Assembly (NCBI GenBank): GCA_965219415.1
Contig: CBDCNP010000002.1
Location: 608,001 to 672,000, forward strand
DNA length: 64,000 nucleotides
Reading direction: 5' to 3'
Source of the DNA: Candidatus Marinacidobacterales bacterium
GTDB taxonomy: Bacteria; Acidobacteriota; Vicinamibacteria; Marinacidobacterales; DATDRI01
Shown: piece by piece, positions 2,073 to 18,326 of the stretch
Layout: the number at the start of each line of letters is the position of its first letter
How positions within the stretch are numbered: the first letter of the stretch is position 1
Translations under genes and position numbers: made by a program
The notes under the pieces: generated by a model
What the model was told of the DNA's origin: nothing
Database searches by the model: none
Seen by the model: only the letters and a program-made list of their open reading frames with translations

Positions 2073-2076
2073 TTCC

Positions 2077-2131: not shown

Positions 2132-3508
2132 ATGTTCAGAATGGCAAGTAACGAGCCCGGAAGCGCGAGCCTTCGCTTCTGCTACGCGTCGGTCTTTTGG
2201 CTGATCGTGCCGGGCGTTTTCGGCCTGATTCTAGCCACTTTCTTGTACGTCCCAGCCCTGGCCGACCAGCTCCCTCTCTCCATCAAGCCGTACTTGAGCT
2301 TCGGCCGGCTGAGACCGGCTCACGTGAACCTCGCGATCTTCGGTTGGCTCTCGCAGGTCTATTATGCCGGCATCCTCTTCATTATCCCTCGGCTCCTCCG
2401 CACCGAGCTCTACAGCGAGCGGCTCGCCAACGTGAACTGGTGCCTCTGGAATCTCATGGTCGCCGCGACGCTTATCACTCTTCCGATGGGACACACCCAA
2501 GGCCGCGAGTACGCGGAGATGATATGGCCGCTCGATCTGCTGTTCATTCTGAACATCGTGCTGTTGGCGATCAACATCTGGGGAACCGTTTCCCGCCGGC
2601 GCGAGCCCAAGATCTACGTGAGCGTCTGGAACTTCATGGCGGCAACGATGGTCATGGTGCCCATCTACGCGGTCGGCAACAAGATTTGGGATCCCTCCGG
2701 TGCCTACTACGGCATGAACGACAACATCGTGAACTACTTCTATGTTCACAATCTATTCAACGCATGGTTTACGACCGCGGGGATCGGGCTGGCTCTTTAT
2801 CTTCTGCCGAAGCTCACCGGAAAAGCGCTCTACAGTCACCGCCTAGGACTCTGGGGACTCTGGAGCGTCTGGACCGGACAACATCACCAACTCTACAGCC
2901 CGGCGCCCGATTGGTTGGAGTACCTCACCATCGTCTTCAGCATTCTGGCAGCCGTGCCGACGACGGCGTTCATGGTCAACTTCTTCATGACCATGCGCAC
3001 ACGCTGGCACCTCGCCGCTCAAGACGTCGCGCTTCGTTTCTTTGCGACCGGAGCGATCTTCTGGGGGCTCACCTGCGTGCAAGGCATCTCTCACTCGTTT
3101 CGAACTTTTTCGATGGTCGTGCATTTTACGAACTGGGTGGTTGGACACTCGCACCTTGCCTTTATGGCGGCCTACAGTTTTTGGGCTTTCGCACTCATCT
3201 ATCTGATCGTGCCGACACTCAGCGGCCGAAACATCTACAGCAAGAAACTGATGGAGTGGCACTATTGGCTGACCACGCTCGGCATGTTGATCTTCATGAT
3301 CTCGATGTGGGTGGCGGGGCTCATCCAAGGACAAAACTGGTCTTCTTATACGATCCCGTTCCTGCAAACCGTGATATCGATGAAACCTTACTTCGGGGCT
3401 CGCCTTATTGGGGGCGCCATCGCCGGCATCGGGATCGGTTGCTTCGCGTGGAATATCTGGCGGACGGCGCGCAGCGGAACCCGTATTGCAAATGAGAGTA
3501 GACAATGA
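2132..3508 (+). CDS. ccoN: cbb3-type (C-family) heme-copper oxidoreductase subunit I-like, non-canonical active site
   Basis: FGRLRPAHVN, GREYAE, IYVSVW, YVHN, GQHH and GHSH motifs; about 12 TM segments; helix-VII Tyr absent. ATG at 2132 or 2141. Confidence 0.9.
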   Translation: MFRMASNEPGSASLRFCYASVFWLIVPGVFGLILATFLYVPALADQLPLSIKPYLSFGRLRPAHVNLAIFGWLSQVYYAGILFIIPRLLRTELYSERLANVNWCLWNLMVAATLITLPMGHTQGREYAEMIWPLDLLFILNIVLLAINIWGTVSRRREPKIYVSVWNFMAATMVMVPIYAVGNKIWDPSGAYYGMNDNIVNYFYVHNLFNAWFTTAGIGLALYLLPKLTGKALYSHRLGLWGLWSVWTGQHHQLYSPAPDWLEYLTIVFSILAAVPTTAFMVNFFMTMRTRWHLAAQDVALRFFATGAIFWGLTCVQGISHSFRTFSMVVHFTNWVVGHSHLAFMAAYSFWAFALIYLIVPTLSGRNIYSKKLMEWHYWLTTLGMLIFMISMWVAGLIQGQNWSSYTIPFLQTVISMKPYFGARLIGGAIAGIGIGCFAWNIWRTARSGTRIANESRQ

Positions 3509-3990
3509 GACCTAACCTGGTCTACCTTATCGGCGGCTCCCTGATCAGCTTGTTGCTCGGGATTATCGTCACCATTATTATCCCTGCGCAGGATCCGATC
3601 GGGCCTTCGCCGTTGGCCCAATCCTATTCCGAAGAAGAATTGAGGGGGCGTGATATCTATCTACGTGAGGGGTGCCATTACTGCCATACCCAGCAAGTCC
3701 GTGAGCCCGAGGCGGATCGTGGGATGGTGCGCCAGCGAGGCGATATCGGACCCGAGTCCGTACCGGGAGATTTCTACTATCAGTCCCCGGTTTTCTGGGG
3801 CACCCTCCGCCAGGGCATGGACTTGGCTCACGTCGCCTCCCGGAAGGGTATCGGAGACAACGTGGGCTGGCATGAGGACCACTTCAAAAACCCCCGGGCG
3901 TGGTCGCCCGGAACGGTCATGCCGTCCTATGACTATCTGTCTGCGGAAGAGATTCAGGCGCTCACCGCATATATATTGACGTTGAGGTAG
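3505..3990 (+). CDS. ccoO: cbb3-type subunit II (monoheme cytochrome c)
   Basis: GRDIYLREGCHYCHTQQVR, GMDLAHV, WHEDHFKNPR, PGTVMPSY; ATGA overlap with ccoN. Confidence 0.9.
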   Translation: MRPNLVYLIGGSLISLLLGIIVTIIIPAQDPIGPSPLAQSYSEEELRGRDIYLREGCHYCHTQQVREPEADRGMVRQRGDIGPESVPGDFYYQSPVFWGTLRQGMDLAHVASRKGIGDNVGWHEDHFKNPRAWSPGTVMPSYDYLSAEEIQALTAYILTLR

Positions 3991-3994
3991 GTCT

Positions 3995-4156
3995 ATGGTG
4001 TTCCCCGCAACTTGGCTGGTGCTGGCGACGGTAGCCATCATCTTGGTGCTCTTCGGCCTCGGGTACTACTGGGCGCGGAGCCACGGGCAGTTCGACGACA
4101 TCGAGATGGCGAAGTACTCCATGCTCGATAACGACAAGACCAACGATGAGCACTAA
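3995..4156 (+). CDS. ccoS: cbb3-type oxidase maturation protein CcoS/FixS (53 aa)
   Basis: Own translation MVFPATWLVLATVAIILVLFGLGYYWARSHGQFDDIEMAKYSMLDNDKTNDEH: TM helix followed by WAxxxGQFDD. Below the ORF-track size cutoff. Confidence 0.85.
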   Translation: MVFPATWLVLATVAIILVLFGLGYYWARSHGQFDDIEMAKYSMLDNDKTNDEH

Positions 4157-4397
4157 AGGAGCGCGGGAAGTACCGCCGGGCCACGACGATTTCGGGGGTG
4201 AGGTGCTGGTCGCCAACGGAAAACCGCCGCGTTGGGTGACCAAGGTTCCCTATCTGGCAATGGCGTTGGCGCTCGGGTACTACGCGCTGGTCCAGGCCAC
4301 CGATCCGGTAAACCTGGTCTTTGCGTCACTGTTCGTGATTTGGTTTCTCTACACACCCATTGCCCAGAAGAAGGGCTGGTTTTTCATCCCGATGTGA
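4146..4397 (+). CDS. small membrane protein resembling the CcoP/FixP N-terminal region, no heme motif
   Basis: GHDDFGGEVLVANGKPPRW resembles GHxxDGIxExxNPxPxWW; two TM helices; overlaps the ccoS stop. Confidence 0.55.
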   Translation: MSTKGAREVPPGHDDFGGEVLVANGKPPRWVTKVPYLAMALALGYYALVQATDPVNLVFASLFVIWFLYTPIAQKKGWFFIPM

Positions 4398-4493
4398 CAT
4401 GCCGAGGGGAGGTGACATCGATCAAATAGATTGAACAACTGCTTAGTGTGTCTCATCTTTTTTCAATTCACGCATTGAACTTGGAGGAAAGAA

Positions 4494-4928
4494 ATGGCCG
4501 ACAGAGCCGAACAAGCAAACAAGTATATGGAAGAGAAGATGTTCTTCACTCCCCGCATGTTCAAAGTAACCAACACGCTGGCACCGGAAGTCGGGGAGCG
4601 CTTCGCCGATTTTTACGAGTCGGTGTGGGCGGACGGCAACCTGCCCCGCAAGATCAAAGAGCTAATGTTCGTCTCCATTGGCGTGGCTTACATGTCGCCA
4701 CGCTGCATCATCCACGTTCAGCCCGCCATCAAGGCCGGTGCCACGGACGGCGAGATCTTCGAGTCAGTGTCGGTCGGTATGCTGGCGGCTGGGTTCGTGC
4801 CCGGCGGACCAGGCATCCCCTATGCCTTCGAATATGCCGCCAAGACGCTGGACATTGCAGCCAAGATCCGTAAGGGCGAAGACTTCGAGTATCTCCCTGG
4901 ACCCAAGTTCGACAAGGGCGTCGGCTAA
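4494..4928 (+). CDS. carboxymuconolactone decarboxylase/AhpD family protein
   Basis: LPRKIKELMFVSIGVAYMSPRCIIHVQPAIKAGATDGEIFE; GGAGG RBS. Confidence 0.85.
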   Translation: MADRAEQANKYMEEKMFFTPRMFKVTNTLAPEVGERFADFYESVWADGNLPRKIKELMFVSIGVAYMSPRCIIHVQPAIKAGATDGEIFESVSVGMLAAGFVPGGPGIPYAFEYAAKTLDIAAKIRKGEDFEYLPGPKFDKGVG

Positions 4929-4944
4929 GGACAACCGTCTCTGC

Positions 4945-4990
4945 GCAGACGGGGGTCGGACAAACTTAGGGCTCCCGTCTGCTTTCTCTT
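4945..4990 (+). terminator. intrinsic terminator-like hairpin after the CMD gene
   Basis: GCAGACGGG (4945-4953) pairs with CCCGTCTGC (4974-4982), followed by TTTCTCTT. Confidence 0.45.
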
Positions 4991-5007
4991 CTAAGACAGA
5001 ACAACAC

Positions 5008-5814
5008 ATGAGTGAGCAGAAATTTCCTAATGACGGTCTTCTGGTCGGCTCCGCCTGGCTGGCCGACCATTTGAACGATGCGGATTTGCGACTGGTGGAA
5101 GTGACGGCGCCCGGTGCCGGATACAAGTTCGGGCATGTCGCAGGCGCCGTCTATCTGAATCTCGACGATGTGTTGACCGGGAAAGCCACCGGCGTCGAGC
5201 GAACGGTGGGCCCCATCGAAGAAGTGGCCGCCCTCCTTGGCCGACTGGGCCTTTCCCGAGACAAGACGATCGTCGTCTACGACGAGTTCGGGGGTACCCG
5301 GGCCTCACAAGCTTTTTGGCTTCTCGAGTACTTGGGCTGTGAGCAGGTGCATTCACTGGAAGGCGGCATCGAACGCTGGCTCGCCGAAAACCGCCCGACG
5401 ACGAGCGAGGCGCCCGATGTCCGAGAGGCGACCTTTACTCCCGCGATTCGTGAAGAGCGTCTCGCAACCGCGGATTGGATCTTGGATCGCCTAGAGAATT
5501 CCGATGTATCGGTCATCGACGCTCGCTCACCCGAGGAGTACGAAGACGGCCATATCCCGGGGGCCAGGAATCGATCCTGGGACAAGACTTTAGCGCGAAA
5601 AGCCTACCAGGCCTTTCGATCGCCCGAAGACCTAAAACGTGAATTCTCCGAGCTGGGTGCAAGCGAAGACAAAGAGATCGTCGCCTACTGCATGACGGGC
5701 GCGCGCTCCTCACACATCTACCTCGCTTTGCGTCTGTTGGGTTACACTCGGGTCCGGAATTATGACGGGTCCTGGACGGAATGGGGGTCCAGACGGGACC
5801 TACCAAAGGCCTGA
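5008..5814 (+). CDS. two-domain rhodanese (thiosulfate/3-mercaptopyruvate sulfurtransferase family)
   Basis: GHVAGA and GHIPGA domain signatures, active-site YCMTGARS, C-terminal YDGSWTEW. Confidence 0.9.
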   Translation: MSEQKFPNDGLLVGSAWLADHLNDADLRLVEVTAPGAGYKFGHVAGAVYLNLDDVLTGKATGVERTVGPIEEVAALLGRLGLSRDKTIVVYDEFGGTRASQAFWLLEYLGCEQVHSLEGGIERWLAENRPTTSEAPDVREATFTPAIREERLATADWILDRLENSDVSVIDARSPEEYEDGHIPGARNRSWDKTLARKAYQAFRSPEDLKREFSELGASEDKEIVAYCMTGARSSHIYLALRLLGYTRVRNYDGSWTEWGSRRDLPKA

Positions 5815-5892
5815 CAAGCCTGAAAGGCCTGACAGAGCTGACGCGTAACCGCGTTGCAAGGCCGGTAATTTCATCTTAGGAGGATTAGGAAA

Positions 5893-7065
5893 ATGGCTAC
5901 CAGTCAACTACCGCTGTTCCCGGTTACCGTCGTGGGCAGCTGGCCGAGACCCCAGTATCTCTTGGACGCGCTCAGGAAGCGCCAAAAGGGGAAGCTGAGC
6001 TTCGAAGAGTTTCAGAAAGTCGCCGACAAGGCGGTGTTGGAGCAGCTACGCTACCAAGACGAAGCGGGCGTCGACATTGTCAGCGATGGCGAGCAACGCC
6101 GAGACAATTTCTACTCGTTCGTCGTAGAGAAGCTGGACGGCGTCGAGCTGATGACCTTGGCGGATCTCATGGACCACGTCGAGGACAAAGCGGGGTTCGA
6201 CTCCATCCTGCGCAGCATGGACGCTCCGGCCTTCGGTATCAAGAACCCGACGGTAACCGGAAAGATAAAACCCAAGATGTCGCTGTCGCTCGACGAGTAC
6301 GAGTTCCTGAAACAGCATACCGACAAGCCCATCAAAATTCCCCTCCCTGGCCCATACATCTTGATCCGATCCATGTGGGTCAAAGGCGTCTCGGACAAGA
6401 TCTACCCCACCCAGGAAGATCTGGCCGTGGATATCGTCAAAATTCTTCGTGACGAGCTCATCGCCCTTCGTGATGCCGGAGTCGACTTCGTGCAATTCGA
6501 CGAACCCGTGCTCACCGACGTCGCTTTCAACCCTGCGGTGAAGGAACGCACGTTCATGTGCGCCTCGATGGCGGCGTCCTCGGGTGATCCGACCAAAGAG
6601 CTCCTGCTGGCGACGCGCATGATGAACAGTATCGTCGACGGCGTCGATGGCATCCGCACCGGCGTCCACGTGTGCCGTGGTAACTGGAGCCGCAAGGACG
6701 AGGTGTTGCTCAAGGGAAGCTATGAGCCGCTGGTCCCGACCATGATGGGGATGCATCTCGATCAGCTCGTCCTCGAGTACGCAACACCGCGTGCCGGTGA
6801 GCTCGCGGCCTTCTCGCACCATCCCAAGGAAAAGGAGATCGGACTGGGCGTTGTCAATCCTCGAACCGACGAGATGGAGTCGCCGGACTCGGTGGTCGAG
6901 CGAGTCAACGAGGCCCTGAAGTACTTCAAGCCCGAGCAGATTTATCTCAACCCCGATTGCGGTTTCGGAACCTTCGCCGAGCGGCCGATGAATCCTGCAG
7001 GGATCGCGGGAAAGAAATTGGCCGTCATCGGTGAGGCGGCCAAGAAGCTCCGTGCAAGCCACTAG
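5893..7065 (+). CDS. cobalamin-independent methionine synthase (MetE catalytic-domain) family Zn enzyme; candidate thiol alkyl/methyl transferase
   Basis: VVGSWPRP, SDGEQRR, QFDEP, Zn ligands HVC...E...NPDCG; 390 aa, single barrel only. Confidence 0.85.
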   Translation: MATSQLPLFPVTVVGSWPRPQYLLDALRKRQKGKLSFEEFQKVADKAVLEQLRYQDEAGVDIVSDGEQRRDNFYSFVVEKLDGVELMTLADLMDHVEDKAGFDSILRSMDAPAFGIKNPTVTGKIKPKMSLSLDEYEFLKQHTDKPIKIPLPGPYILIRSMWVKGVSDKIYPTQEDLAVDIVKILRDELIALRDAGVDFVQFDEPVLTDVAFNPAVKERTFMCASMAASSGDPTKELLLATRMMNSIVDGVDGIRTGVHVCRGNWSRKDEVLLKGSYEPLVPTMMGMHLDQLVLEYATPRAGELAAFSHHPKEKEIGLGVVNPRTDEMESPDSVVERVNEALKYFKPEQIYLNPDCGFGTFAERPMNPAGIAGKKLAVIGEAAKKLRASH

Positions 7066-7315
7066 CAGGGTGCTGAAAAATTCGCGGCACACTGCGCGAG
7101 GAGCCATCAGCTGTCCCGAAGCCGCTTGCCAGAAGGAACGGGGGGGGCCCCGCCGCACTGATGAAGGAGCGAACCCGCGTGGGCCGTCAAACTAGGTCGT
7201 TGCTGAAACTGGACGTGACCAGGCGGCGGGCCGATGAAAGTTCGCCGAGCGAAGAGCGAGGCGCCAAGCGCGCGAACGAGGAGTGAGCGCGCATTGAGCA
7301 TAGGATGAAAGAGTT

Positions 7316-7843
7316 ATGGAAGAATCGACCAAAATTAACGGGTTGGACATTGAGGAGACCCGGGAAGCCATCAAGACCGTAAGCGCCGTGGAGGGGGCAC
7401 CGAAGGCCCCCAAGAAATCACGGTGCAAATGGTTGACCGGTCTCAAATTCAGGACCTACGTACGGAACCACGTCTTCCTCGTCGATGAGCCCGCACACCT
7501 CGCGGGCGAGGATGAAAGCCCTAACTCGATGGAGTATGTGCTGGGAGCCTACGCCGCGTGTTTGGCCACCGGCTTCGTTCTCAACGCCAGCCAGAAGGGT
7601 ATCGAAATCCACAACCTCGAAGTGGCCGTGGACTCGACTCAGAACAACGTATTCACGTTTCTGGGTCTGGGGGGCGAAGGACACGCCGGGTTCGACACTA
7701 TCAACGCCAAGCTCTTCGTTCAGGCCGATGCGGACGAGGCCACGCTAAAAGACGTTTGGGCCCAGACCGTGGACACCTCTCCGGTGCACAACTCTCTGGC
7801 CCGGCCGGTGACCATCAATCCTGAGGTCGAGATCATTCCGTAG
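7316..7843 (+). CDS. OsmC/Ohr family protein
   Basis: DEPAHLAGEDESPNSMEYVLGAYAACL; the second Cys position reads SPV. Confidence 0.85.
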   Translation: MEESTKINGLDIEETREAIKTVSAVEGAPKAPKKSRCKWLTGLKFRTYVRNHVFLVDEPAHLAGEDESPNSMEYVLGAYAACLATGFVLNASQKGIEIHNLEVAVDSTQNNVFTFLGLGGEGHAGFDTINAKLFVQADADEATLKDVWAQTVDTSPVHNSLARPVTINPEVEIIP

Positions 7844-7915
7844 CTCCTAGGTCAGATTTCGGATCGCCGCCTGGCCTGCCTCGGACCCCCAAGGTCTGGT
7901 CTGCCTGACCCGAAA

Positions 7916-9316
7916 CTACCCTCCGGAAGCCTGGGGAGTGAGGGTGTATCCGAGAGCTTCGGCTGCCTTTTGTAAACCGTTGATGTGGTTTTGGCGAAAA
8001 CGGTCTTCGAAGGCGCGTTCGCCGATATCGATGTAATCGTGGCCATATTTGAGCATGCGGAAGACGAGCTGGGCGAGCTTGCGTGCTGTAGCAAAGACGG
8101 CGGTTTTGCCATCTTTACGGCGAGCAGTGCGGCGATAGTAAGCGCCTAGGGCGGTCTTGGAGCGGGAGAGAGATACAGCGGCCATACGTAAGGCACCGGC
8201 GATGCGATTGGAGCCGGCGCCGTTGCGGCGTTTGGAGAGTTGTTTACCGCCGGAGATAGGGCGACGTGGGGCGAGATGTAGCCATGAGACGAAGAATTTT
8301 TCGAAAGGGAAATCAGAGAGGTCGAATCCGATCTCGGTGAGGACAATGGCGGCGGTGGTTGGACTGATTCCGTCGATCCTGGTGAGGTCGCATCCAGCAA
8401 AACGCCACAGCTCGTTGCGCAGTTCGCTCTCGCCCCGATGCTGCATGTCGTATCGTTTTTGCGGATTTGGATGAGCTGGCACGTTGTGGTGTCTGCGTTG
8501 TGGCGGCTGGAGTTCGATGAGCACTTCAAGGATACGCTGGTCGAACAGTTCGACTTCGGCTTGTAGCGCATCGTAGAGACGCAGAGCCGATGCGAGGTTG
8601 AAAAGATGCTCGTCACGCCAAGTGCCGGTAAGATGCTCGGCGATCTCCTCTTCGCTCTTCTTGCAGCGTTGGTCACGAAATGCAGCCAGCTTTGACGGGT
8701 CACGCTCACCATCAACGATGGCGCGCACGATGAGCATGCCTGTGACGCCGGTAATGTCGGTCACTGCACGATGGACCTGAACGTTCATTTGGTCCAGAGA
8801 TTTCTGTATCCATTGAATAGCTCGACTACACTGCTCGATGAGGCTGCAACGCTGTCGGTGAAGCGAGCGTAGGCGGCAGATCGACTCACCAGGACGAAAC
8901 GAGCCTCGCAACAGACCACAGCTGTGTAACAGCTGCAGCCACTGACAGTCATGCATATCGGTTTTACGCCCGGGGACGTTTTTTAACTGTCGAGCATTTA
9001 CCAGCACCACTTCAAGACCCCGCGATTCAAGCAACTCATAAATCGGAATCCAATAGACGTAGGTGCTTTCCATCGCAACCGATTCGACTCCTTGCTCGAT
9101 GAGCCAATCCCCCATTTGATTCAAAGACGGTGTCGTTGGGGAAAACACCCGCACGTTCACTTTACCGTCCGACAAGGCCGGCCCACATACCCAATGCTCA
9201 CGACTGCCAATATCGATGCCTGCTACCTTCGACCTTGTCACCGGCAGCGATTGCGGCGACAGATTCTTCGACTTCCTACCACTCTTTTTCACGCGCTTGT
9301 GCATCACTGACCTCAC
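7916..9316 (-). CDS. IS110-family transposase/recombinase (DEDD)
   Basis: AGIDIG, VAMEST, GRKTDMHDCQW, IDGIS, PISGG, ATARKLA. Confidence 0.95.
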   Translation of the reverse strand: MRSVMHKRVKKSGRKSKNLSPQSLPVTRSKVAGIDIGSREHWVCGPALSDGKVNVRVFSPTTPSLNQMGDWLIEQGVESVAMESTYVYWIPIYELLESRGLEVVLVNARQLKNVPGRKTDMHDCQWLQLLHSCGLLRGSFRPGESICRLRSLHRQRCSLIEQCSRAIQWIQKSLDQMNVQVHRAVTDITGVTGMLIVRAIVDGERDPSKLAAFRDQRCKKSEEEIAEHLTGTWRDEHLFNLASALRLYDALQAEVELFDQRILEVLIELQPPQRRHHNVPAHPNPQKRYDMQHRGESELRNELWRFAGCDLTRIDGISPTTAAIVLTEIGFDLSDFPFEKFFVSWLHLAPRRPISGGKQLSKRRNGAGSNRIAGALRMAAVSLSRSKTALGAYYRRTARRKDGKTAVFATARKLAQLVFRMLKYGHDYIDIGERAFEDRFRQNHINGLQKAAEALGYTLTPQASGG

Positions 9317-9329
9317 ATGTATTTTGTGA

Positions 9330-11072: not shown

Positions 11073-11966
11073 ATGAAGAACCTGGTTCCACTGCCGTATC
11101 GCCGTGTCTCCGTCCAGCCTTACCAAGGCCAGATGACGGAGCCAGCCATCCGCGCCCACCTGATGGGCCGCGAGACCTATCGGCGCACGGATTTCGTCGT
11201 CCTCAGGCAGGGGCAACAGACCGCGGTCGTCGAGGTCACTGCCCCCGACCGAGAGAGCCTCTTCAGCCCCATCGATTCCGTCCGCATCGTGGCCCTGCCC
11301 GAAACATGTGTCTTCGTCGAAGCCTCAGAGACCGACCCGGCCAACCCGTCCTCCCTCGCCGCCAAGGCGCACGAGCTCGGAATCGAAGGCGAGCAAACAC
11401 TCGTGGTACGCGGCAAGTACGAGCACGTCGGTTTCATTCATCACCCCGAACCAATGGTCATCCGTGTCGTGGAGGTCTCTCCGCCCGAGCCACCCAAATT
11501 GTTCGACCTCGCCCAACGCGTACTCGGTTACGCGGAGCTTCCACCGATCCGGTTGGAGCTCACACGGATCGACCTGATCGAGCTCGCCGAAGGCCACTCT
11601 CCTTCCTCCTTCTTAGTGCCTTGCCGCTCTGGAGGACTGGAAGCGCTCAAGGCGCCGGTGCACTTTCTGGACGAGCGCCCCGAGCGGCACGACTGGACGA
11701 TGATCGGATGCGAACGCAGTTTGCAGTTCCACCGCCATTTCTACGGCGACGAGCCGCCCCGCATAGAGCTCTGCCCTCGCCAACTGGCGGGCAACAACGA
11801 CACACCAACGCTACTCAAATGCTGCCTGCTCGAGTTCGACACCGAGCTCGACGGAAGCACGGTGGCGGCGCCGTGGGGTGCCGACTTGGCGATGGTGGAA
11901 AAGGCCATCCGCCAACTCGTGGCGGTCGCCGAGCCCGCACCCGCCGGCGCATCTAAAGTTCCCTGA
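11073..11966 (+). CDS. Cys-rich conserved hypothetical protein, probable XcbA-like component of the CoM biosynthesis cluster
   Basis: First gene of the comA operon; LVPCR, IGCERSLQFH, LCP, LLKCCLLE and PWGA motifs. The XcbA assignment rests on position and recall. Confidence 0.6.
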   Translation: MKNLVPLPYRRVSVQPYQGQMTEPAIRAHLMGRETYRRTDFVVLRQGQQTAVVEVTAPDRESLFSPIDSVRIVALPETCVFVEASETDPANPSSLAAKAHELGIEGEQTLVVRGKYEHVGFIHHPEPMVIRVVEVSPPEPPKLFDLAQRVLGYAELPPIRLELTRIDLIELAEGHSPSSFLVPCRSGGLEALKAPVHFLDERPERHDWTMIGCERSLQFHRHFYGDEPPRIELCPRQLAGNNDTPTLLKCCLLEFDTELDGSTVAAPWGADLAMVEKAIRQLVAVAEPAPAGASKVP

Positions 11967-11991
11967 CCGCAATCACCGGAGGAAAGCCTTC

Positions 11992-12828
11992 ATGACCAAA
12001 GCCTGGACTGCCATCTTTCCCGAACTGGCGGCCCGCTCGCGCAAGCCGCGCACTCGCGGGGTGACGATGCTCCTCGACAAGTGCCAGGGCCCCTCGGCCA
12101 CCGAAGATCTCTTGGCGATGTCGGGTGACTACATCGACTTCTGGAAGATGTCCTACGGGACATCGGCTCTCCTCGACGATGGTTTCCTACGTCGTAAGAT
12201 CGAAACCATCGGCCAGCACGACATCATCGTGCATCCCGGCGGTACATTGGCCGAATACGCGATCATGCAAGGTGTCTGCCGAGAATACGTCCGACACTGC
12301 CAGACCCTCGGCTTCACCGGCGTCGAGATTTCGGATGGCACCATCGAGCTCGCGCCCGGTGCCCGACGGGATGCGATTCGGTACGCACGGGATCTCGGCT
12401 TAACCGTTGTCACCGAGGTGGGCAAGAAAGACCCCAACGAACAACCTCCGGTGGAGCTACTCGCAGAGCAAGCACTGGCCGACTTCGATTCGGGAGCCTC
12501 CTGGGTGATCGTCGACGCGCGGGAGTCTGGCCGAGGAGTCGGGGTATTCGATGCGGATGGCTCCGTCCGCGAGGACGCGGTGGATGCCATGGTCGACATC
12601 CTAGAAGGCCATCTCGATAAGATGATCTGGGAGACACCGCTCAAGAAACAGCAGGAGTACTTCGTCATTCGCTTCGGGCCGCACATCGGGCTGGGCAACA
12701 TCCAACCGCGCGACGTCCTGGCGCTGGAAGCGATGCGCACCGGGATCCGCTTCGAGACGTTCCACGCTTTTGCCAAGAAGCTCCTCGAGGAAGCCCAGCA
12801 GGCTCGAGAGACGGCGGACGAGGGATAA
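11992..12828 (+). CDS. comA: phosphosulfolactate synthase (ComA/XcbB)
   Basis: RSRKPRTRGVTMLLDK, YIDFWKMSYGT, PGGTLAE, VEISDG, TEVGKK, ARESG, LEAMRTGIR; GGAGG RBS. Confidence 0.92.
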   Translation: MTKAWTAIFPELAARSRKPRTRGVTMLLDKCQGPSATEDLLAMSGDYIDFWKMSYGTSALLDDGFLRRKIETIGQHDIIVHPGGTLAEYAIMQGVCREYVRHCQTLGFTGVEISDGTIELAPGARRDAIRYARDLGLTVVTEVGKKDPNEQPPVELLAEQALADFDSGASWVIVDARESGRGVGVFDADGSVREDAVDAMVDILEGHLDKMIWETPLKKQQEYFVIRFGPHIGLGNIQPRDVLALEAMRTGIRFETFHAFAKKLLEEAQQARETADEG

Positions 12829-12837
12829 AGGATCGCG

Positions 12838-14415
12838 ATGGTGTTTGGCGAACCCCCGTCCGACGAGCTCATCCGAACCGCGTACGCACGCGAAGCGGGC
12901 GACACGGCTATCCTTTGTAAGGGGATGAGCCTGGCCGACATCGCCCACGTCGTGGGGCTGGTCGAATCCAAGATCATTCCCCGCCAAGCGGGAGGCGAGC
13001 TCCTGTGGGCATTGCTGGAAATCCATCCTTCACCGCCGATGGATTTTGCTGTCGATCCCGCCCGCGGTGATTCCTACTCCAACCGGGAGTCCTACCTGAG
13101 AATGCTTACCCCCTCGACCGGGTGGCTGTCGGTGGGCCGAGCGAGACGTGAGTCCACGACCACCGGTTATCGAATCACCGTCCGAGAGCGGCTGCTGAGC
13201 TTGGCCGGCGCACTCGGCGACTGCGCTACGGCGGCACTCGAGCAATGTGACGCGCATCGAGCGACTCTCTTCCCCGACTACACCTACCTGCAGCCGGCTC
13301 AACCGACGGTGTTCGCGCATTACCTGCTCACGTTCGTCTACCCAATGCTCCGGGACCTCGAGCGTCTCGGGGGCGCCTTCGCGCGTACCAACGTTTCGCC
13401 GGCCGGGTGTGGGAGCGTCAACGGAAGCCGACTCCCCTTGGACCGCGAAGCGCTGTCCGCCATGCTCGGCTTCGATCGCCCCATCCCGCATGCACGCGAC
13501 GCCATGTGGCAGGCGGACGGTCCGATCGAAAACGCCGCCCTCATCACTGGAGCGCTGGTCAACCTCGACCGCTTGGCCGAAGACCTGCAGATCTTTTCGA
13601 CATCGGAGTTCGGGCTCGTCGAGTTGGCCGACCGCCACGCGCGCGCGAGCGTGATCATGCCGCAGAAGAAAAACCCGTACTCGCTCGCCTATCTCCGCGG
13701 GCTCGCCGGGGCCTCCATCGGCACTCTCGCTGCGATGGCTGCGGTCGCGAAGACACCTTCCGGACAGATCGACAATCGCATGTTCGCCTATGGCGACGTA
13801 CCACGGGCGCTCGATCACGCGGCGGACGCAGCACGCTTGATGGCCGACGTGCTCCGAGGGATCACGGTGAAGACGGATGTCGCCGAGCGTCGAGCCGCTC
13901 AAGACTTTCTCGGTGCGACCGATTTAGCGGAAGTCATCATGATCGAGTGCGAGATCGACTATAAGACGGCGCACCGCATCGTGGCTCGGGCCATCCGCGA
14001 AGCGCTCGACTCGGGCGAATCGGGGTTGTCCGTGAAACGGCTGGAAGCGAGCGCCGAAGCCACCGTTGGAAAACAGCTCGGTCTCTCGAAGAACAGAATT
14101 CGCGAATCGCTCGACCCGGCGAGTATCGTCGCGACACGCAGCGGCATCGGTGGCGCAGCGAGCGAATCGGTGGGTGAGATGATCGCCGAATGCAGGAAGG
14201 GCCTGAAGGAAAATGAAACGTGGCGTCTCACCACGGGAAGGAAGCTCGTCGAGGCCGAAACTCGGCTGGGAATGAAGGCCACGGTACTGAAGATCGTGCC
14301 CGCCGAGGGGGACGGCTCATCTGGAGCCGAGCGAGCCGAATCGGATTCTTGGGAAAAGGAGTTCGAAGATCTTCCCAAGATGCCTCCGGGGCGCCGCCGG
14401 TTTCCAGCCGAATGA
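12838..14415 (+). CDS. argininosuccinate lyase-like aspartase/fumarase superfamily enzyme (XcbC-like)
   Basis: YTYLQPAQP, SVIMPQKKNP, ATDLAE; directly after comA. Confidence 0.85.
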   Translation: MVFGEPPSDELIRTAYAREAGDTAILCKGMSLADIAHVVGLVESKIIPRQAGGELLWALLEIHPSPPMDFAVDPARGDSYSNRESYLRMLTPSTGWLSVGRARRESTTTGYRITVRERLLSLAGALGDCATAALEQCDAHRATLFPDYTYLQPAQPTVFAHYLLTFVYPMLRDLERLGGAFARTNVSPAGCGSVNGSRLPLDREALSAMLGFDRPIPHARDAMWQADGPIENAALITGALVNLDRLAEDLQIFSTSEFGLVELADRHARASVIMPQKKNPYSLAYLRGLAGASIGTLAAMAAVAKTPSGQIDNRMFAYGDVPRALDHAADAARLMADVLRGITVKTDVAERRAAQDFLGATDLAEVIMIECEIDYKTAHRIVARAIREALDSGESGLSVKRLEASAEATVGKQLGLSKNRIRESLDPASIVATRSGIGGAASESVGEMIAECRKGLKENETWRLTTGRKLVEAETRLGMKATVLKIVPAEGDGSSGAERAESDSWEKEFEDLPKMPPGRRRFPAE

Positions 14416-14439
14416 CCGCTCCCGTCAGAGCCTAACGTC

Positions 14440-15819
14440 ATGCCATCTCACATTTCCGATTCGCTGATCTACCGGGGTTCATGGGGAACCGAGGAGACGC
14501 GTGCGATATTCGACGACGTGCCCCGAACCCGCGCGTGGCTCGAGATCCTGGCGGTGCTCGCGGAAAGCCAAGCGGAGGTGGGTCTCATCCCCGCCGACGA
14601 TGCCCAGAAAGTGGCGCGCGCCTGCCGAGAGATGACGCTCGACGCCGAGTTCTTCGAGGAGGTCCGCAAGGGTTTCGAGGAAACGAATCACACCACGCTC
14701 GGCCTCATTCGCGCCGTCCAGAAGCGTTGCCCGGAAGGGTCCGGCGAATGGGTCTACTACGGTGCCACCGTGCAAGACATCGCCGACACCTGGACCATGA
14801 TGGCGGTCGCGCAAGTCTGGTCCATCGCGTTCCGAGAGTCGAGAGCGCTCGAAGAGAATCTTCTTCGACTGGCGGAGACACACAAAAACACGGTCATGGC
14901 CGGTCGCACGCACGGCCAGCCGGGACTACCTATCACCTTCGGTTTCAAGGCAGCGGTTTGGGCGAGCGAAACTCGACGCCACATCGCGCGCCTCAAAGAC
15001 ATTAGACATCGCCTCGGAGTGGGGCAACTTGCGGGCGGCGTAGGCAGCATGTCCTCGTTGGGCCCGCAGGCGTTCACGCTGCAGGAAAAGTTCTGTTCTC
15101 GTCTGGGGCTTCAATCGCCGGATATCTCATGGACCACCGCGCGGGACGTTCTGGTGGAGTGGTTCCAGCTGCTCACTTTGATATCAGGTACCGCGGACAA
15201 GATGGGGCATGAGATCTACAACCTGCAGCGTCCCGAGATCGGCGAGGTCAGTGAAGGTTTCGTACCGGGAACGGTGGGGAGCATCACCATGCCACACAAG
15301 CGTAACCCCGAGATCGCGGAGCACCTGGGAACGCTGGCAAGAGTGATCCGACACAACACGGCTCTCCTGGCTGAATCTCAAGTGCACGACCACGAGCGGG
15401 ACGGACGGGCTTGGAAATCGGAGTGGGCGGTTCTCGCCGAGACCTCGATGGCGGCGGCGAAATTGCTCGAGTTAACCAACACAATGACCGAACATCTCGA
15501 CGTCCACGCCGACCGGGCGCTCGCTAATCTGGAAGCGAGCCAAGGCTTCGTGCTGTCAGAAGCCGTCATGCTGAAGCTTGCGGAGTATGTTGGCAAGCAA
15601 AGTGCCCACACGCTGGTGTACGAGACCGCGATGAAGGCACACGACGAGGGGCGTCCGCTAAAGGACGCCATTCTGAAGAATGATGCCATCTGCAAGCACC
15701 TGTCCGCGGAGGCCATCGAGGATCTGTTCGACTACCGGCGACATGCGGGTTTCTGTAGCGAGCAAGTCGATCGGGTGCTGGAGCGGGCGAGGAAGGAGAG
15801 GGAGAGCGACTCGGAATGA
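14440..15819 (+). CDS. adenylosuccinate lyase-like enzyme (XcbD-like)
   Basis: GATVQDI, MAGRTHGQPG, GSITMPHKRNPE, HERD. Confidence 0.85.
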   Translation: MPSHISDSLIYRGSWGTEETRAIFDDVPRTRAWLEILAVLAESQAEVGLIPADDAQKVARACREMTLDAEFFEEVRKGFEETNHTTLGLIRAVQKRCPEGSGEWVYYGATVQDIADTWTMMAVAQVWSIAFRESRALEENLLRLAETHKNTVMAGRTHGQPGLPITFGFKAAVWASETRRHIARLKDIRHRLGVGQLAGGVGSMSSLGPQAFTLQEKFCSRLGLQSPDISWTTARDVLVEWFQLLTLISGTADKMGHEIYNLQRPEIGEVSEGFVPGTVGSITMPHKRNPEIAEHLGTLARVIRHNTALLAESQVHDHERDGRAWKSEWAVLAETSMAAAKLLELTNTMTEHLDVHADRALANLEASQGFVLSEAVMLKLAEYVGKQSAHTLVYETAMKAHDEGRPLKDAILKNDAICKHLSAEAIEDLFDYRRHAGFCSEQVDRVLERARKERESDSE

Positions 15820-16235
15820 AAACCTATTTCTACATCGGGCTGGCACTGATTCCACTCACCTTCGGAGCGTGTGGCAACGGAGCCGGCTCCAAGAGTGCCG
15901 AAGCCAACATCAAACCCCTCCCTATCGGCAACCCGGCAGACGGAGAAAGCGTCTTCATGGGTACGTGCATCAAGTGCCACGGCAAAGATGCAACCGGAAT
16001 CGAAGGTTCAGGAACGAACCTGACCATCAGCGATTTCGTCAGAAATCATGCGGATGCCGAGTTGGTGGACTACATCAAGACCGGACGCCCGATGAACGAC
16101 CCACTCAACACGACGGGCATCGCCATGCCCCCGTACGGCGCCAATCCGATGCTAACCGATCAGGATCTCGCAGACGTCGTTTCGTACCTCAGGACCGTCC
16201 TTAGAACCTCGACCATGGAAAACAACGACAAGTGA
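15816..16235 (+). CDS. monoheme cytochrome c, probable lipoprotein
   Basis: Lipobox-like FGAC, CIKCHG heme motif, distal MPP; ATGA overlap with the upstream gene. Confidence 0.85.
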   Translation: MKTYFYIGLALIPLTFGACGNGAGSKSAEANIKPLPIGNPADGESVFMGTCIKCHGKDATGIEGSGTNLTISDFVRNHADAELVDYIKTGRPMNDPLNTTGIAMPPYGANPMLTDQDLADVVSYLRTVLRTSTMENNDK

Positions 16236-16251
16236 CGAAGAGACAACCAAT

Positions 16252-17247
16252 ATGTCGACACCCTCTCGTTTCGAGCTAGCCATTCTACCTACACCCCTCG
16301 TCGAGGCCTCGCGTTTATCGCGAGCTCTCGAGGGTCCCCGAATCCTTATCAAGCGCGACGACCTGACGGGTTTCGGTTTCGGTGGCAACAAAGTACGTGG
16401 ACTCGAGTATTCCATCGCCGACGCCACCGCCAAAGAAGCCGATGTTGTCGTCACCGGTGCGGGACCGCAATCGAATCACATCCGCGCCACCGCGGCCGCG
16501 GCGCGGGCAGCGGGGCTCGATGTGGTCGCCGTCATGCACGGCGAGCGACCCGCCGAGACGCAGGGCAATCTTCTTCTCGATCAATGGCTAGATGTCGAGA
16601 CGCGATTCACAAATGATCCCGACCGCAGCCTCTTGGATCAAAAGATCGAGGAAGTCGCGGAGGAGCTCCGGCAATCGGGGCGACGACCGTATGTCATTCC
16701 TCGGGGAGGTTCTTCGGCGATCAGTGCCTGCGGTTACGTGCAGTGTGCCCGCGAATTGGGAGACCAGCTCGTAGATCTAGGTGCTCGACCGCACTGGCTG
16801 ATCCTGGCCACCGGAGGCGGCGGCACGCATGCGGGCCTCCTCGCCGGTTCGAAGATCTACGATGCGCCGTATCGCATTCTCGGTGTCACCGTAAGCCGCC
16901 CGGCCGATGAGTGCGAGGAGCGGATCGCACACCTGGCCCGCGAGGCGGCACAGCTCTTCCGACCTCAAGGGGAAGCCATCCACATCACCCCCGACGACAT
17001 CTCGGTCCGCGACGGTTTTATCGGTGACGGGTATGGGATCCCCTCACCTGAGGGCATCGAAGCGATCCGCCTGCTGAGCCGGACAGAGGGGTTGTTCTTG
17101 GATCCGACTTACACCGGTAAGGCCATGGCGGGGCTCATCGGCGAGATCCGATCGGGGCGCATTAGAAAAGGCGAGACGGTCGTCTTCGTTCACACCGGCG
17201 GAGAGCCTGCCCTCTTTGCCCACCCGGAGATCGCGACGCGTTCATGA
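16252..17247 (+). CDS. PLP-dependent D-cysteine desulfhydrase family enzyme (XcbE-like)
   Basis: IKRDDLTGFGFGGNKVR, QSNH, LDPTYTGKAM, HTGG. Confidence 0.9.
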   Translation: MSTPSRFELAILPTPLVEASRLSRALEGPRILIKRDDLTGFGFGGNKVRGLEYSIADATAKEADVVVTGAGPQSNHIRATAAAARAAGLDVVAVMHGERPAETQGNLLLDQWLDVETRFTNDPDRSLLDQKIEEVAEELRQSGRRPYVIPRGGSSAISACGYVQCARELGDQLVDLGARPHWLILATGGGGTHAGLLAGSKIYDAPYRILGVTVSRPADECEERIAHLAREAAQLFRPQGEAIHITPDDISVRDGFIGDGYGIPSPEGIEAIRLLSRTEGLFLDPTYTGKAMAGLIGEIRSGRIRKGETVVFVHTGGEPALFAHPEIATRS

Positions 17248-18326
17248 AGAAGAGCCTGCCCGCTGCGACGTACCTGACTGCCACGCTCTTACTAGTCTTA
17301 CTCACAGGGCTCACCGGCGGCGCGCCGCGGGAAGAGCCTCACGCCATCTGGGAAGCCGACAACCCGATCCAGCCGATCCCCGCGAGTCCTCTGGGCATAG
17401 ATATACGGCTCCATCGCCTGAAGGACCCCCCCACTCCCGAAACGGTGCGACTCGGTCGATGGCTTTTTTTCGATGAACGACTCTCTGCCGATGGGACGGT
17501 CTCCTGCGGGACCTGCCATCGTCCGGAGAACGCGTTTTCCGAGCCGAAACCGGTGTCGACCGGAGTTCATGGGCAAACGGGAACCCGCAAGGCCCCGACG
17601 ATCGTAAACCTGTCGAGAAGCCTCTACCCATCTCTCTTTTGGGACGGTCGAGCCGCAACGCTCGAAGCACAGGCTCTGCTCCCGATCGTCAATCCGATCG
17701 AAATGGGAAACAGCGTGGAGGCGGCTCTCGAAACACTTCGCTCCATCGAGGGTTACCGGAAGTATTTCGAGGAAGCCTTTGGATCACGCGAGGTCACCCC
17801 ACAACGCGTAACACGTGCCATCGCCGATTACGAGAGGACACGACGGAGTGGCAACTCGCCTTGGGACCGATGGAGCGCCGGAGATGCGAGCGCGCTTTCC
17901 GATGCGGCGCAGTTGGGAAGGCAAATCTTCTTTGGAAGGGGACGCTGCACGCGTTGCCATAACGCGCCGGATTTCACCGACGACGAGTTCCACAACGAAG
18001 GCATCGGATGGGTTCCCGAGACACAATCCTTCCTCGACGAGGGTCGCTTCGCGGTGAGCAAATTGGGCACCGATCGGGGCGCGTTCAAGACTCCCACTCT
18101 ACGGGACGTCGGCCTCCACCCGCCCTTCATGCACGACGGTTCCATCGCAACCCTCCGAGAGGTCGTTGAACACTACAACCGAGGGGGAAACCCCAATCCC
18201 TACCTGGATCCCGTTATCGAACCGCTCGACCTGAAGGAGCCGCAGCTCGAAGGGCTCGTCGCGTTCCTCGAAGCGCTCGCCGGCGAAAGCTACCGGGACG
18301 AGGCGCCCGCAACTTTCCCCAAATGA
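17244..18326 (+). CDS. di-heme cytochrome c peroxidase/MauG family protein
   Basis: LGRWLFFDERLS, CGTCH, FWDGRA, CTRCH, FKTPTLR, PFMHDG; signal peptide; ATGA overlap. Confidence 0.9.
   Translation: MKKSLPAATYLTATLLLVLLTGLTGGAPREEPHAIWEADNPIQPIPASPLGIDIRLHRLKDPPTPETVRLGRWLFFDERLSADGTVSCGTCHRPENAFSEPKPVSTGVHGQTGTRKAPTIVNLSRSLYPSLFWDGRAATLEAQALLPIVNPIEMGNSVEAALETLRSIEGYRKYFEEAFGSREVTPQRVTRAIADYERTRRSGNSPWDRWSAGDASALSDAAQLGRQIFFGRGRCTRCHNAPDFTDDEFHNEGIGWVPETQSFLDEGRFAVSKLGTDRGAFKTPTLRDVGLHPPFMHDGSIATLREVVEHYNRGGNPNPYLDPVIEPLDLKEPQLEGLVAFLEALAGESYRDEAPATFPK

Follow-up and report, generated by a model that had tools for sequence, protein, structure and literature searches.

A coenzyme M gene set linked to a tyrosine-less, cbb3-derived haem-copper enzyme in uncultured Acidobacteriota and Chloroflexota

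Background

We know of coenzyme M (CoM) in bacteria solely as the carrier of the alkene/epoxide pathway. The described biosynthetic genes that stand closest to those treated here are the xcbABCDE genes of Xanthobacter autotrophicus Py2, and in the parts of Wu et al. 2022 (PMC9457059) on which we draw, XcbA, a [2Fe-2S] protein that has nine cysteines, makes CoM by reduction of sulfoethanethioaldehyde. An etnE cluster that has no alkene monooxygenase and is regarded as detoxifying has been described in Methylohalobius, in a portion of PMC11507031. In this report we analyze a 64,000-nucleotide stretch of a Candidatus Marinacidobacterales genome (assembly GCA_965219415.1, contig C3, 608001-672000), called the window throughout, in which a predicted xcbABCDE set lies downstream of genes for several thiol-handling proteins and for a haem-copper enzyme of cbb3 type that has lost the cross-linked tyrosine of its active site.

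Two further groups of described enzymes provide the background for the proteins of this locus. Haem-copper oxidoreductase families without the cross-linked tyrosine are read as enzymes that do not act on O2 in the portions of Murali et al. 2024 (PMC11214002) that bear on the subject; the characterised nitric oxide (NO) reductases lack this residue, and an NO reductase function is proposed for most of the new families. The tyrosine-less families given there are cNOR, qNOR, NOD, "N2O red", eNOR, sNOR, gNOR and nNOR, with "N2O red" placed near cNOR and the other four new families near the B family. The other group is that of the folate-independent core methionine synthases MesA-D, and the protein of structure 3RPD is a MesD core methionine synthase according to the relevant part of Price et al. 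2021 (PMC7857596).

Genomes and loci compared

The window genome measures 8.05 Mb in three contigs and is 96.3% complete with 8.45% contamination. Related loci (L numbers) and genomes (G numbers) were approached from both ends of the gene array. The XcbD-anchored set holds 80 species-genome loci from an alignment of XcbD homologues, and the enzyme-anchored set holds 79 metagenome loci from a scan with an alignment of CcoN-like proteins, of which 68 fall in the tyrosine-less clade and 11 are ordinary cbb3 loci. Searches at the level of whole genomes covered 50 of the 80 XcbD genomes, the others (L052-L065, L067, L069-L074, L076-L081 and L083-L085) all having XcbD at most 56% identical.

Coenzyme M genes beside a haem-copper enzyme

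To judge from the predicted proteins, the second of the two gene blocks in the window (Table 1) is a complete xcbABCDE set for bacterial CoM synthesis. The genes stand in the same A-B-C-D-E order as those of canonical epoxide clusters, with 41-62% identity, and the five gene families, their order and a DUF7714 XcbA with conserved cysteines are also shared with the Py2 set as far as it is described in the cited part of PMC9457059. A first-pass annotation of the window, made from the letters alone, had read comA, two aspartase/fumarase-family genes and a pyridoxal phosphate (PLP) enzyme gene as the bacterial CoM set, and this reading is upheld by ComA and XcbD, which exceed the cut-offs of TIGR03849 and NF052536. 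It had listed the first gene of the block as a Cys-rich open reading frame (ORF); the gene is indeed present, and what had gone unrecognised is its identity as XcbA, with 56-62% identity to the ORF at the xcbA position of canonical epoxide clusters and with six cysteines conserved in at least 20 of 21 sequences. XcbD, presumed to be the cysteine-adding enzyme, is the single over-cut-off copy in the window genome, and none of 14 control genomes has a protein over the NF052536 cut-off. XcbC, presumed to be the phosphate-eliminating enzyme, ends 5.5 bits short of the NF052535 cut-off and far above argH (257.9 bits). For XcbE the best family is NF052537, with CuyA at 332 bits, and its identity to ORFs at the XcbE position of canonical clusters is 44-56%. 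CoM is likely to be made in situ.

The set differs from the Py2 cluster, as described in the same part of PMC9457059, by XcbC and XcbE scores that fall under the family cut-offs and by a cytochrome c gene that lies between xcbD and xcbE; it differs from the proteobacterial loci in having no alkene monooxygenase, EtnE/XecA, SDR, 2-KPCC-like or coenzyme A (CoA) transferase gene as neighbour. Cytochrome c homologues occupy the same place in L006, L009, L018, L099 and L140. The position of this gene within the xcb operon ties xcb to an electron-transfer chain, as the first-pass annotation had supposed in linking the locus to a membrane chain. The same annotation had counted a di-haem peroxidase gene at the end of the array as a member of the module, an assignment that we abandon, since none of the 159 related loci (80 genome and 79 metagenome) holds a homologue of this MauG/CCP-type protein.

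Linkage between the two blocks is seen whichever block is used as the anchor. Matches to XcbA, ComA, XcbC and XcbE occur in 59, 61, 71 and 64, respectively, of the 80 XcbD loci, many of which are incomplete. The genes of the tyrosine-less enzyme, together with a CMD gene, lie directly upstream of xcbA, with the enzyme within 10 kb, in eight of the 80 (L009, L010, L013, L018, L034, L050, L066 and L082), and three more genomes carry them 11-15 kb upstream on the same strand. At genome level a clade member is present in 22 of the 50 XcbD genomes searched and not in 28, and it is present in every one of the 14 genomes with an XcbD that shares 68% identity or more with that of the window. Sixteen clade contigs extend at least 9 kb downstream of the enzyme: 15 of them have CMD, six xcb, five a MetE-like gene and six the URO-D (corrinoid methyltransferase) block described below, such that at least one of the last three is found in 12. 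Module genes are missing from all 11 ordinary cbb3 contigs. The window order from CcoN through XcbD and the cytochrome c gene recurs in L099, which continues into XcbE, and in L140, which ends before that gene.

The two blocks were expected by the first-pass annotation to recur together in other genomes. They do so, in synteny, in metagenome-assembled genomes (MAGs) labelled Anaerolineae, Caldilineaceae, Dehalococcoidia and Ardenticatenaceae and, within the Acidobacteriota, Vicinamibacteria and Marinacidobacterales, over a range of 49-95% CcoN identity; in G630, by contrast, the first block is present and XcbD was not detected. The closest named relative is a Vicinamibacteria-labelled MAG (XcbD 82%, CcoN 87% and MetE-like protein 90% identical). 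XcbD exceeds its cut-off in one of 401 sampled genomes of the window phylum, namely the window genome itself, which suggests that the module was probably acquired laterally. The clade enzyme was found in four of 301 genomes in an even sample of the class to which genome G001 belongs, G630 being one of the four.

In the window the blocks are separated by 3,225 bases that contain an IS110-family insertion sequence (IS) element and an HNH-bearing segment. In L098, L099 and L140, all of which share the gene order of the window and have neither IS110 nor HNH, OsmC ends exactly where xcbA begins, and this abutment implies that the insertion-free locus is a single module, as had been proposed from the window alone. 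A conserved and rearranging module joins xcb, the tyrosine-less enzyme with a cytochrome c of its own, predicted one-cysteine proteins of the AhpD and OsmC types, sulfur-relay proteins and two to three unrelated kinds of thiol methyltransferase. The recurrent pairing of xcb with the enzyme points to an undescribed use of CoM beyond alkene metabolism. Among open-access PMC and bioRxiv papers we found none in which xcb or CoM biosynthesis is connected with a haem-copper enzyme, with Chloroflexota/Anaerolineae or with MtaA-type systems of bacteria.

The tyrosine-less haem-copper enzyme

By its sequence the CcoN-like protein falls within the cbb3 lineage proper. It scores 233-235 bits against the solved cbb3 CcoN chains (3mk7/5djq), as opposed to 24 bits against NorB (3o0r_B), and 288.4 bits with the ccoN equivalog TIGR00780, below the cut-off of 583.15. 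Its H64, H206, H251, H252, H339 and H341 correspond to H60, H207, H257, H258, H345 and H347 of 3mk7_A, and these six ligands of haem b, haem b3 and CuB are invariant across 11 clade members. The protein had been called "Tyr-less" on first inspection, correctly so: in the HMMER alignment to Pseudomonas stutzeri CcoN (3mk7_A) a deletion of five residues takes out Y251 while all six histidines are kept. The same alignment has S240 replaced by G, H243 by G and E323 by Q, three residues that we take to belong to the proton path of cbb3. Among 61 clade members (at least 48.7% identical to the window protein) the cross-linked tyrosine is missing from all 61, with Ser, Gly or Thr at its expected position, and it is kept in all 11 outgroup sequences (at most 42% identical). 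The tyrosine-less set is monophyletic in a FastTree phylogeny (support 0.988) and sits on a long stem. Tyrosine-containing sister sequences from Anaerolineae, 40-45% identical to the window protein, are found in L181 and L182 (genomes G689 and G457); these loci have no module genes nearby and are useful as a view of the ancestral state. The two sequences, at 40-42% identity, are counted among the 11 of the outgroup.

The P. stutzeri CcoNOP oxidase is thus the best solved relative and shares with the window enzyme the six histidines, a CcoO-type subunit and CcoS; it differs in having Y251, S240, H243, E323 and a di-haem CcoP. Wherever a clade contig extends 1.5 kb or more downstream (38 contigs), the CcoO-like gene follows CcoN. 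Its product is short in the window, where di-haem CcoP is missing. CcoS, a copper-centre maturation factor, is kept in related loci, and the PF03597 match at window positions 4019-4135 is the sole one in the genome. The small membrane ORF that follows has homologues in 24 of the 42 loci of at least 6 kb; it had been labelled a "CcoP-like stub", a name that we drop, as the FixP_N profile matches neither this ORF nor anything else in the window genome. A distantly placed equivalent in L137 gives 19.2 bits with FixP_N, below the cut-off.

NorB carries a Glu ligand for FeB after the metal-site His. The CcoN-like protein, unlike NorB, has no Glu after its active-site His (the motif there is N-L-F-N). 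We consider that the enzyme is probably not an oxygen reductase. With the tyrosine-less families of Murali et al. (PMC11214002) it shares the absence of the cross-linked tyrosine, the mark of a non-O2 enzyme in the portions of that paper used here, and it differs from them by its place within the cbb3 lineage and by the lack of a NorB-type Glu. A tyrosine-less clade in cbb3 proper is not named in those portions of its text, with which, rather than with its trees and datasets, the comparison was made, and the clade may overlap an unlabelled branch there. Elsewhere the window genome encodes an A-type oxidase and a true qNOR, and no ordinary cbb3 oxidase was found in it. The qNOR (763 aa, 840 bits to 6qq5_A) lies at C3:4499000-4504000 (L178 1991-4282, minus strand). 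Since members of the clade match Pfam COX1 and FixO, they may be scored as "cbb3 oxidase" in surveys of MAGs and misread as a sign of microaerobic respiration.

Thiol-handling proteins and a core MetE-type enzyme

AhpD and OsmC proteins of the canonical kind work with a pair of cysteines. The CMD/AhpD-like protein of the module has one conserved cysteine, Cys71, which is conserved along with His74 in 34 of 34 sequences, and in the OsmC-like protein Cys82 (28 of 28 sequences) is the sole conserved cysteine. The active-site Cys of the rhodanese is conserved in all seven sequences compared, and its gene travels with the MetE-like and OsmC genes.

In the MetE-like protein the zinc ligands His259, Cys261 and Cys356 are conserved (11/11). 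Its best solved relative is 3RPD (102 bits), of which it keeps the homocysteine-binding Ser, Glu and Asp, residues 22, 73 and 188 of 3RPD if a numbering offset of three residues is assumed. The EtnE-like proteins of canonical clusters, to which it is 25-28% identical, have GNYP and DGR (Asn and Arg) where the MetE-like protein has the Ser and the Glu; an Arg would suit a sulfonate and a Glu an amino group. We considered the MetE-like protein as an analogue of EtnE, that is, as a CoM transferase, and rejected the idea on this comparison of substrate residues. It is more likely to be a homocysteine-type methyltransferase than a CoM transferase.

The single-domain core, the zinc ligands and the homocysteine residues are likewise features of MesA-D, and especially of the MesD/MesX system, in the relevant parts of PMC7857596. 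The window protein is set apart by its score of 102 bits to 3RPD, by its constant company of rhodanese and OsmC and by its tie to the tyrosine-less enzyme, and that score suggests that it would fall short of the 560 bits to ACIAD3523 that Price et al. set as a minimum in the cited part of the paper. Homologues of at least 70% identity were found in five of the 50 genomes searched, and all five carry the tyrosine-less enzyme. The window genome also encodes MetH, such that the MetE-like protein is an extra copy without a folate domain. The MesX profile (PF08908, DUF1852) has no match in the window genome and is equally silent in the 14 control genomes.

A constant core and exchangeable blocks

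CcoN, CcoO, CcoS, the small ORF and CMD form a constant core, behind which one finds the rhodanese/MetE-like/OsmC trio, a corrinoid block of about 9 kb, or xcbA directly. The trio may also follow xcbE (L050, L075), and the MetE-like and OsmC genes precede CcoN in L034, L141 and L137. CMD stands beside xcbA even in L031 and L033, loci from genomes that lack the clade enzyme, and it therefore bridges both blocks; no other gene is tied as closely both to the haem-copper genes and to xcb.

The block of about 9 kb encodes a CxxC-bearing CMD, three URO-D proteins of the MtaA/CmuA family, a TrmB regulator, a RACo activator, a corrinoid protein, DUF3303, PF13769 and DUF6951 proteins and a PduO-type cobalamin adenosyltransferase. 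It lies between CMD and xcbA (L092-L094) or after xcbE (L010, L118, L135). Relatives that have it carry an MtrH-family gene inside xcb, and their RACo has a domain that binds cyclic nucleotide monophosphates. In Anaerolineae relatives the corrinoid set was located at L092 6904-16201 and 17764-19001, in L093 and L094, and at L010 11421-20335. A corrinoid set that adjoins xcb or lies within it hints at methyl-CoM chemistry in bacteria. The likeness is to the methylcobamide:CoM systems of methanogens (MtaA/MtbA), given the MtaA/CmuA, corrinoid, MtrH-family and RACo proteins encoded beside xcb in these relatives; the differences are that the genes are bacterial, that their scores lie under the cut-offs, that no methyl-CoM reductase was seen in the loci and that the window genome is without the block. 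No RACo or MtaA-like match was found in that genome, and its match for a B12-binding protein is just 31% identical and located within MetH.

A gene for a TusA-DsrE fusion stands directly upstream of CcoN in 17 of the 42 loci of at least 6 kb. Represented by L135 9110-9919 and found in 16 other loci, many of them from Anaerolineae, it has an unusual placement of the TusA cysteine and does not occur in the window. The first-pass inventory of genes was accurate for those in the window and had overlooked this gene and the corrinoid block, both of which belong to relatives. A P450 gene is part of the module at L009 8696-9988 (between xcbC and xcbD), L113 14502-15731 and L136 13229-14452 (both in the first block), and was seen solely in compared loci that also have the MetE-like gene. 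Some long contigs without xcb carry genes for S-adenosylmethionine-dependent methyltransferases, a DinB/MST-type thiol transferase, thiamine pyrophosphate enzymes, a cysteine-desulfurase-like protein, an SsuD-like monooxygenase and homocysteine synthase. The order in G630 is CcoN, CcoO, CcoS, the small ORF, a TauA/SsuA-like importer, CMD, rhodanese, MetE-like protein, OsmC and cytochromes b and c. This importer (L180 7516-10256; binding protein, permease and ATPase, between the haem-copper genes and CMD) is a single case with a score of 60 bits, and, as a predicted sulfonate-type system, would be in keeping with the import of CoM or of another C2 sulfonate resembling it.

Search for an epoxide pathway

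Proteobacterial XcbD loci are canonical epoxide clusters with genes for EtnE-like proteins, SDRs, 2-KPCC-like proteins, CoA transferases, acyl-CoA synthetase and aldehyde dehydrogenase. ORFs of three such clusters (L080, L058 and L067) were used as queries against the window genome. The best match to EtnE there is the MetE-like gene of the window, at 21% identity; for the 2-KPCC-like ORF of L080 identity does not rise above 23%, in a match located elsewhere in the genome; and a 537-aa ORF of the canonical cluster has no match. A 25.3-bit match to PF02332 (Phenol_Hydrox) in a 218-aa ORF was rejected as an alkene monooxygenase, the ORF having no NCBIfam or PDB relative. PF02461 has no match in the window genome and is silent in the controls as well. 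The absence of an alkene/epoxide pathway, noted at first for the window, thus extends to this 96.3%-complete genome, in which no EtnE/XecA, 2-KPCC-like protein or alkene monooxygenase (soluble di-iron or copper membrane type) was found, and it is highly probable that CoM is not used for epoxide carboxylation here. What the locus has in common with EtnE/XecA clusters, including that of Methylohalobius (as described in part of PMC11507031), is a MetE-family zinc enzyme near xcb with no alkene monooxygenase found; it is distinguished by the low identity and exchanged substrate residues given above, and by a window without the downstream dehydrogenases or carboxylase.

A role for coenzyme M and the alternatives

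The explanation that we tentatively favor, with a probability that we would place a little short of even, is that of one laterally mobile module, split in the window by IS110 and HNH, that comprises xcbABCDE, the tyrosine-less enzyme and cytoplasmic thiol-handling proteins. That the module is a functional unit in its own right we think very probable. CoM itself may act jointly as a thiol cofactor for one-cysteine proteins of the AhpD and OsmC types and as a compound that accepts or carries methyl groups for the corrinoid methyltransferases (MtaA/CmuA type) of relatives, a double role to which we would give somewhat less than an even chance. CoM is proposed as the partner thiol of the AhpD-like and OsmC-like proteins, which have no resolving cysteine of their own. 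It would be made in situ as a soluble thiol of low molecular weight for these proteins, and in relatives it would take part in corrinoid methyl transfer that replaces the rhodanese/MetE-like/OsmC trio. The MetE-core enzyme would methylate a homocysteine-like amino-acid thiol to give methionine or a related thioether. Electrons would pass from the lipoprotein cytochrome c of the operon through CcoO to the haem-copper enzyme, which would reduce a small two-electron oxidant (NO or peroxide), and not O2, without the cbb3 proton path. In a more ambitious version, the tyrosine-less clade would be a new catalytic class of haem-copper enzymes, whose reaction would rely on CoM-linked thiol/methyl chemistry within the first bacterial system of methyl/thiol transfer based on CoM; methyl-CoM would be handled by MtaA/CmuA-type enzymes, or the MetE-core enzyme would provide a CoM-dependent route to methionine, and the whole would be coupled to a terminal enzyme of respiratory type that serves it specifically, and would be widespread in uncultured Anaerolineae and some Acidobacteriota. 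Taken together, these further claims are doubtful.

Several observations weigh against the favored explanation. XcbC and XcbE fall below their cut-offs, and their product may therefore differ from CoM. The URO-D, corrinoid and MtrH-like proteins of relatives all remain below family cut-offs as well. The MetE-like protein is present in just five of the 22 enzyme-positive genomes, and its homocysteine-binding residues imply no direct link to CoM. The hairpin that follows CMD, together with the insertion, speaks against a single transcript for all 15 genes in the window. Ten of the 16 long enzyme contigs have no xcb in the flanks that they cover (L127, L137, L138, L147, L148, L154 and L155 are among the long contigs of this kind), from which it follows that the enzyme does not strictly need xcb, and four of the 16 have neither xcb nor the MetE-like gene nor the URO-D block in those flanks. 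To these may be added G630, with its first block and no XcbD detected at E <= 1e-100, and the qNOR of the window genome, next to which a second NO reductase would be redundant.

This last point bears equally on an alternative in which the module serves against nitrosative stress, with a new C-family NO reductase, with AhpD and OsmC proteins that reduce peroxynitrite or hydroperoxides by means of CoM, and with the cobalamin-independent MetE-core enzyme as a substitute for MetH when the latter is inactivated by nitrous oxide (N2O) or NO. Such inactivation of MetH by N2O has reportedly been observed (PMC13059711). The alternative draws on the loss of the presumed cbb3 proton-path residues, a loss also found in cNOR, on the presence of MetH beside an extra copy that has no folate domain, on the di-haem peroxidase gene that follows xcbE in the window, and on the reading of tyrosine-less families as non-O2 enzymes and mostly as proposed NO reductases (PMC11214002, in the portions noted above). 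We nevertheless judge it unlikely, in view of the missing NorB-type Glu, the 24 bits to NorB, the retention of CcoS with its supposed role in copper-centre maturation, and the many relatives in which a corrinoid system, itself understood to be N2O-sensitive, takes the place of the MetE-like gene; nor were nir or nos genes noticed in the loci, although no systematic search for them was made. A relay for sulfur oxidation or persulfides is a different proposal, according to which sulfane sulfur would move between rhodanese, TusA-DsrE and the one-cysteine proteins, CoM would carry it as a persulfide, and the haem-copper enzyme, where the electrons end, would be a sulfide-tolerant terminal oxidase. 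The frequent place of TusA-DsrE upstream of CcoN would suit it, as would the rhodanese of the trio, the cytochrome b and c genes downstream in G630, and the SsuD-like monooxygenase, homocysteine synthase, cysteine-desulfurase-like and DinB/MST-type neighbours of variant loci. It is quite improbable all the same, for the tyrosine and the proton path that O2 reduction calls for are missing, the TusA-DsrE gene is not in the window, the methyltransferase blocks are left unexplained, and no Sox, Dsr, sHdr or SQR gene was noticed in any locus (these were not searched for systematically).

Very improbable, in our estimation, is a CoM-dependent detoxification of epoxides or other electrophiles in which the MetE-family enzyme, like EtnE, would conjugate to CoM the epoxides made by P450 or by co-oxidation. 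EtnE/XecA do belong to the MetE family (an EtnE-like ORF matches PF01717), the three loci with a P450 gene all have the MetE-like gene, and the Methylohalobius cluster (in the cited part of PMC11507031) does without an alkene monooxygenase; against this, the MetE-like protein is at 25-28% identity to EtnE-like proteins and keeps Ser and Glu in place of Asn and Arg, no SDR, 2-KPCC-like (best 23%) or CoA-transferase partner occurs nearby or, at useful identity, anywhere in the genome, and no P450 was found among the window ORFs scanned, the rest of the genome not having been searched for one. Finally, two unrelated operons might share a transferable island without any functional coupling, their association reflecting common descent. 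The rarity of XcbD in the phylum, which suggests lateral acquisition, the presence of IS elements and the occurrence of the first block in G630 without detected XcbD could all be accommodated in this way, and yet linkage persists despite reordering and the insertion of a 9-kb block, and does so in several lineages and over the full range of CcoN identity; the tyrosine-containing sister clade and the ordinary cbb3 contigs carry no module genes; CMD bridges the blocks; and the xcb operon includes a gene for cytochrome c. We regard this possibility as highly improbable.

The xcb genes recur in uncultured Chloroflexota and some Acidobacteriota apart from the epoxide pathway and tied to a non-standard haem-copper enzyme. 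If the favored explanation is right, CoM would have a second role in bacteria, as thiol cofactor or methyl carrier, a tyrosine-less branch within the cbb3 lineage would join the known non-oxidase haem-copper families, and a candidate partner system would be at hand for a folate-independent enzyme resembling methionine synthase.

Features of the locus and its surroundings

The features of the locus are collected in Table 1. All 15 co-oriented genes claimed by the first-pass annotation lie on the plus strand, and the IS110 transposase gene and HNH ORFs are the only minus-strand genes between the blocks, in agreement with its description. Two long ORFs, 10868-11956 and 10106-10657, were rejected as spurious frames.

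Table 1. Coordinates (window positions), strand and supporting evidence for features of the locus
Feature	Position	Strand	Evidence
CcoN-like catalytic subunit, tyrosine-less, cbb3-derived	2132-3508	+	PF00115 8e-81
CcoO-like short mono-haem subunit, 161 aa, one CxxCH	3505-3990	+	PF02433 (FixO) 1.9e-27
CcoS/FixS-type maturation protein, 53 aa	3995-4156	+	PF03597 28.4 bits (cut-off 23.1)
Small conserved membrane ORF in ccoP position, no haem domain	4146-4397	+	no Pfam family
CMD/AhpD-like one-cysteine protein	4494-4928	+	PF02627 2e-08
Terminator- or attenuator-like hairpin between CMD and rhodanese genes	4945-4982	+	13-bp stem
Two-domain rhodanese (sulfurtransferase)	5008-5814	+	PF00581 2.6e-40, two stretches
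Core MetE-type zinc thiol methyltransferase (putative), without folate domain	5893-7065	+	PF01717 2e-32
OsmC-like protein, single conserved Cys	7316-7843	+	PF02566 3.1e-17
Mobile insertion (IS110 element and HNH segment)	7844-11068	none assigned	OsmC-xcbA abutment in relatives
IS110-family element	7904-9543	transposase 7916-9316 minus	Pfam DEDD_Tnp_IS110 and Transposase_20
HNH-bearing segment	9543-10785	ORFs 9541-10209 and 10043-10567 minus	Pfam HNH
XcbA (DUF7714), predicted Fe-S thioaldehyde reductase	11067-11966	+	PF24830 1e-85
ComA/XcbB phosphosulfolactate synthase	11992-12828	+	TIGR03849 298.8 bits (cut-off 280)
XcbC, aspartase/fumarase family	12838-14415	+	NF052535 569.5 bits (cut-off 575)
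XcbD, aspartase/fumarase family	14440-15819	+	NF052536 652.5 bits (cut-off 600)
Lipoprotein-type mono-haem cytochrome c, within xcb operon	15816-16235	+	PF13442 1.2e-10
XcbE-like PLP enzyme	16252-17247	+	NF052537 398.6 bits (cut-off 450)
MauG/CCP-type di-haem protein, overlaps xcbE stop	17244-18326	+	PF03150 4e-56

Upstream of the module lies a gene for a PilZ-domain protein (956-1555; PF07238, and TIGR02266 at 31.9 bits, below the cut-off of 68.7), and downstream of it one for a secreted BNR/sortilin-repeat protein of 1,023 aa (18435-21506) that has no homologue in the related loci. Beyond the BNR gene there are 40 ORFs that reach 200 aa; the 10 that were scanned show nothing related to the module and encode peptidases, HemA, a penicillin-binding protein, methyltransferases and a regulator.

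The terminator-like hairpin that had been noted after CMD is real; it has a predicted folding energy of -28.9 kcal/mol (z = -3.06) and a U-rich tail next to it, and was not listed on the plus strand by a simple terminator scan. A promoter scan gave five sites where 4.9 were expected from shuffled sequences, that is, no excess.

The IS110 transposase has both family domains (PF01548 1.8e-21, PF02371 9.4e-14). At least 10 further full or partial copies of the 1,640-bp element, at about 99% identity, are spread over all three contigs, and depth over the element is 5-9 times that of its flanks in two public runs, from which we conclude that it has recently been active. The HNH segment (1.24 kb) has an 83% copy at C1:1382519-1383778 and would accordingly be a second repeated element, possibly one in decay. 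Its HNH gene is seemingly split in two overlapping frames, and the contigs of runs X6 and X10 omit one base in this region, at position 10196. Contigs from four DNA runs break at the ends of the IS, and none of them joins OsmC to xcbA without the insertion (window 1500-19000), such that the evidence for the empty site comes from relatives alone. A repeat in the spacer that separates the MetE-like gene from OsmC (7062-7307) has 82-90% copies at three other sites in the genome; here too the contigs break, and summed contig depth is several-fold above that of the flanks in all four runs.

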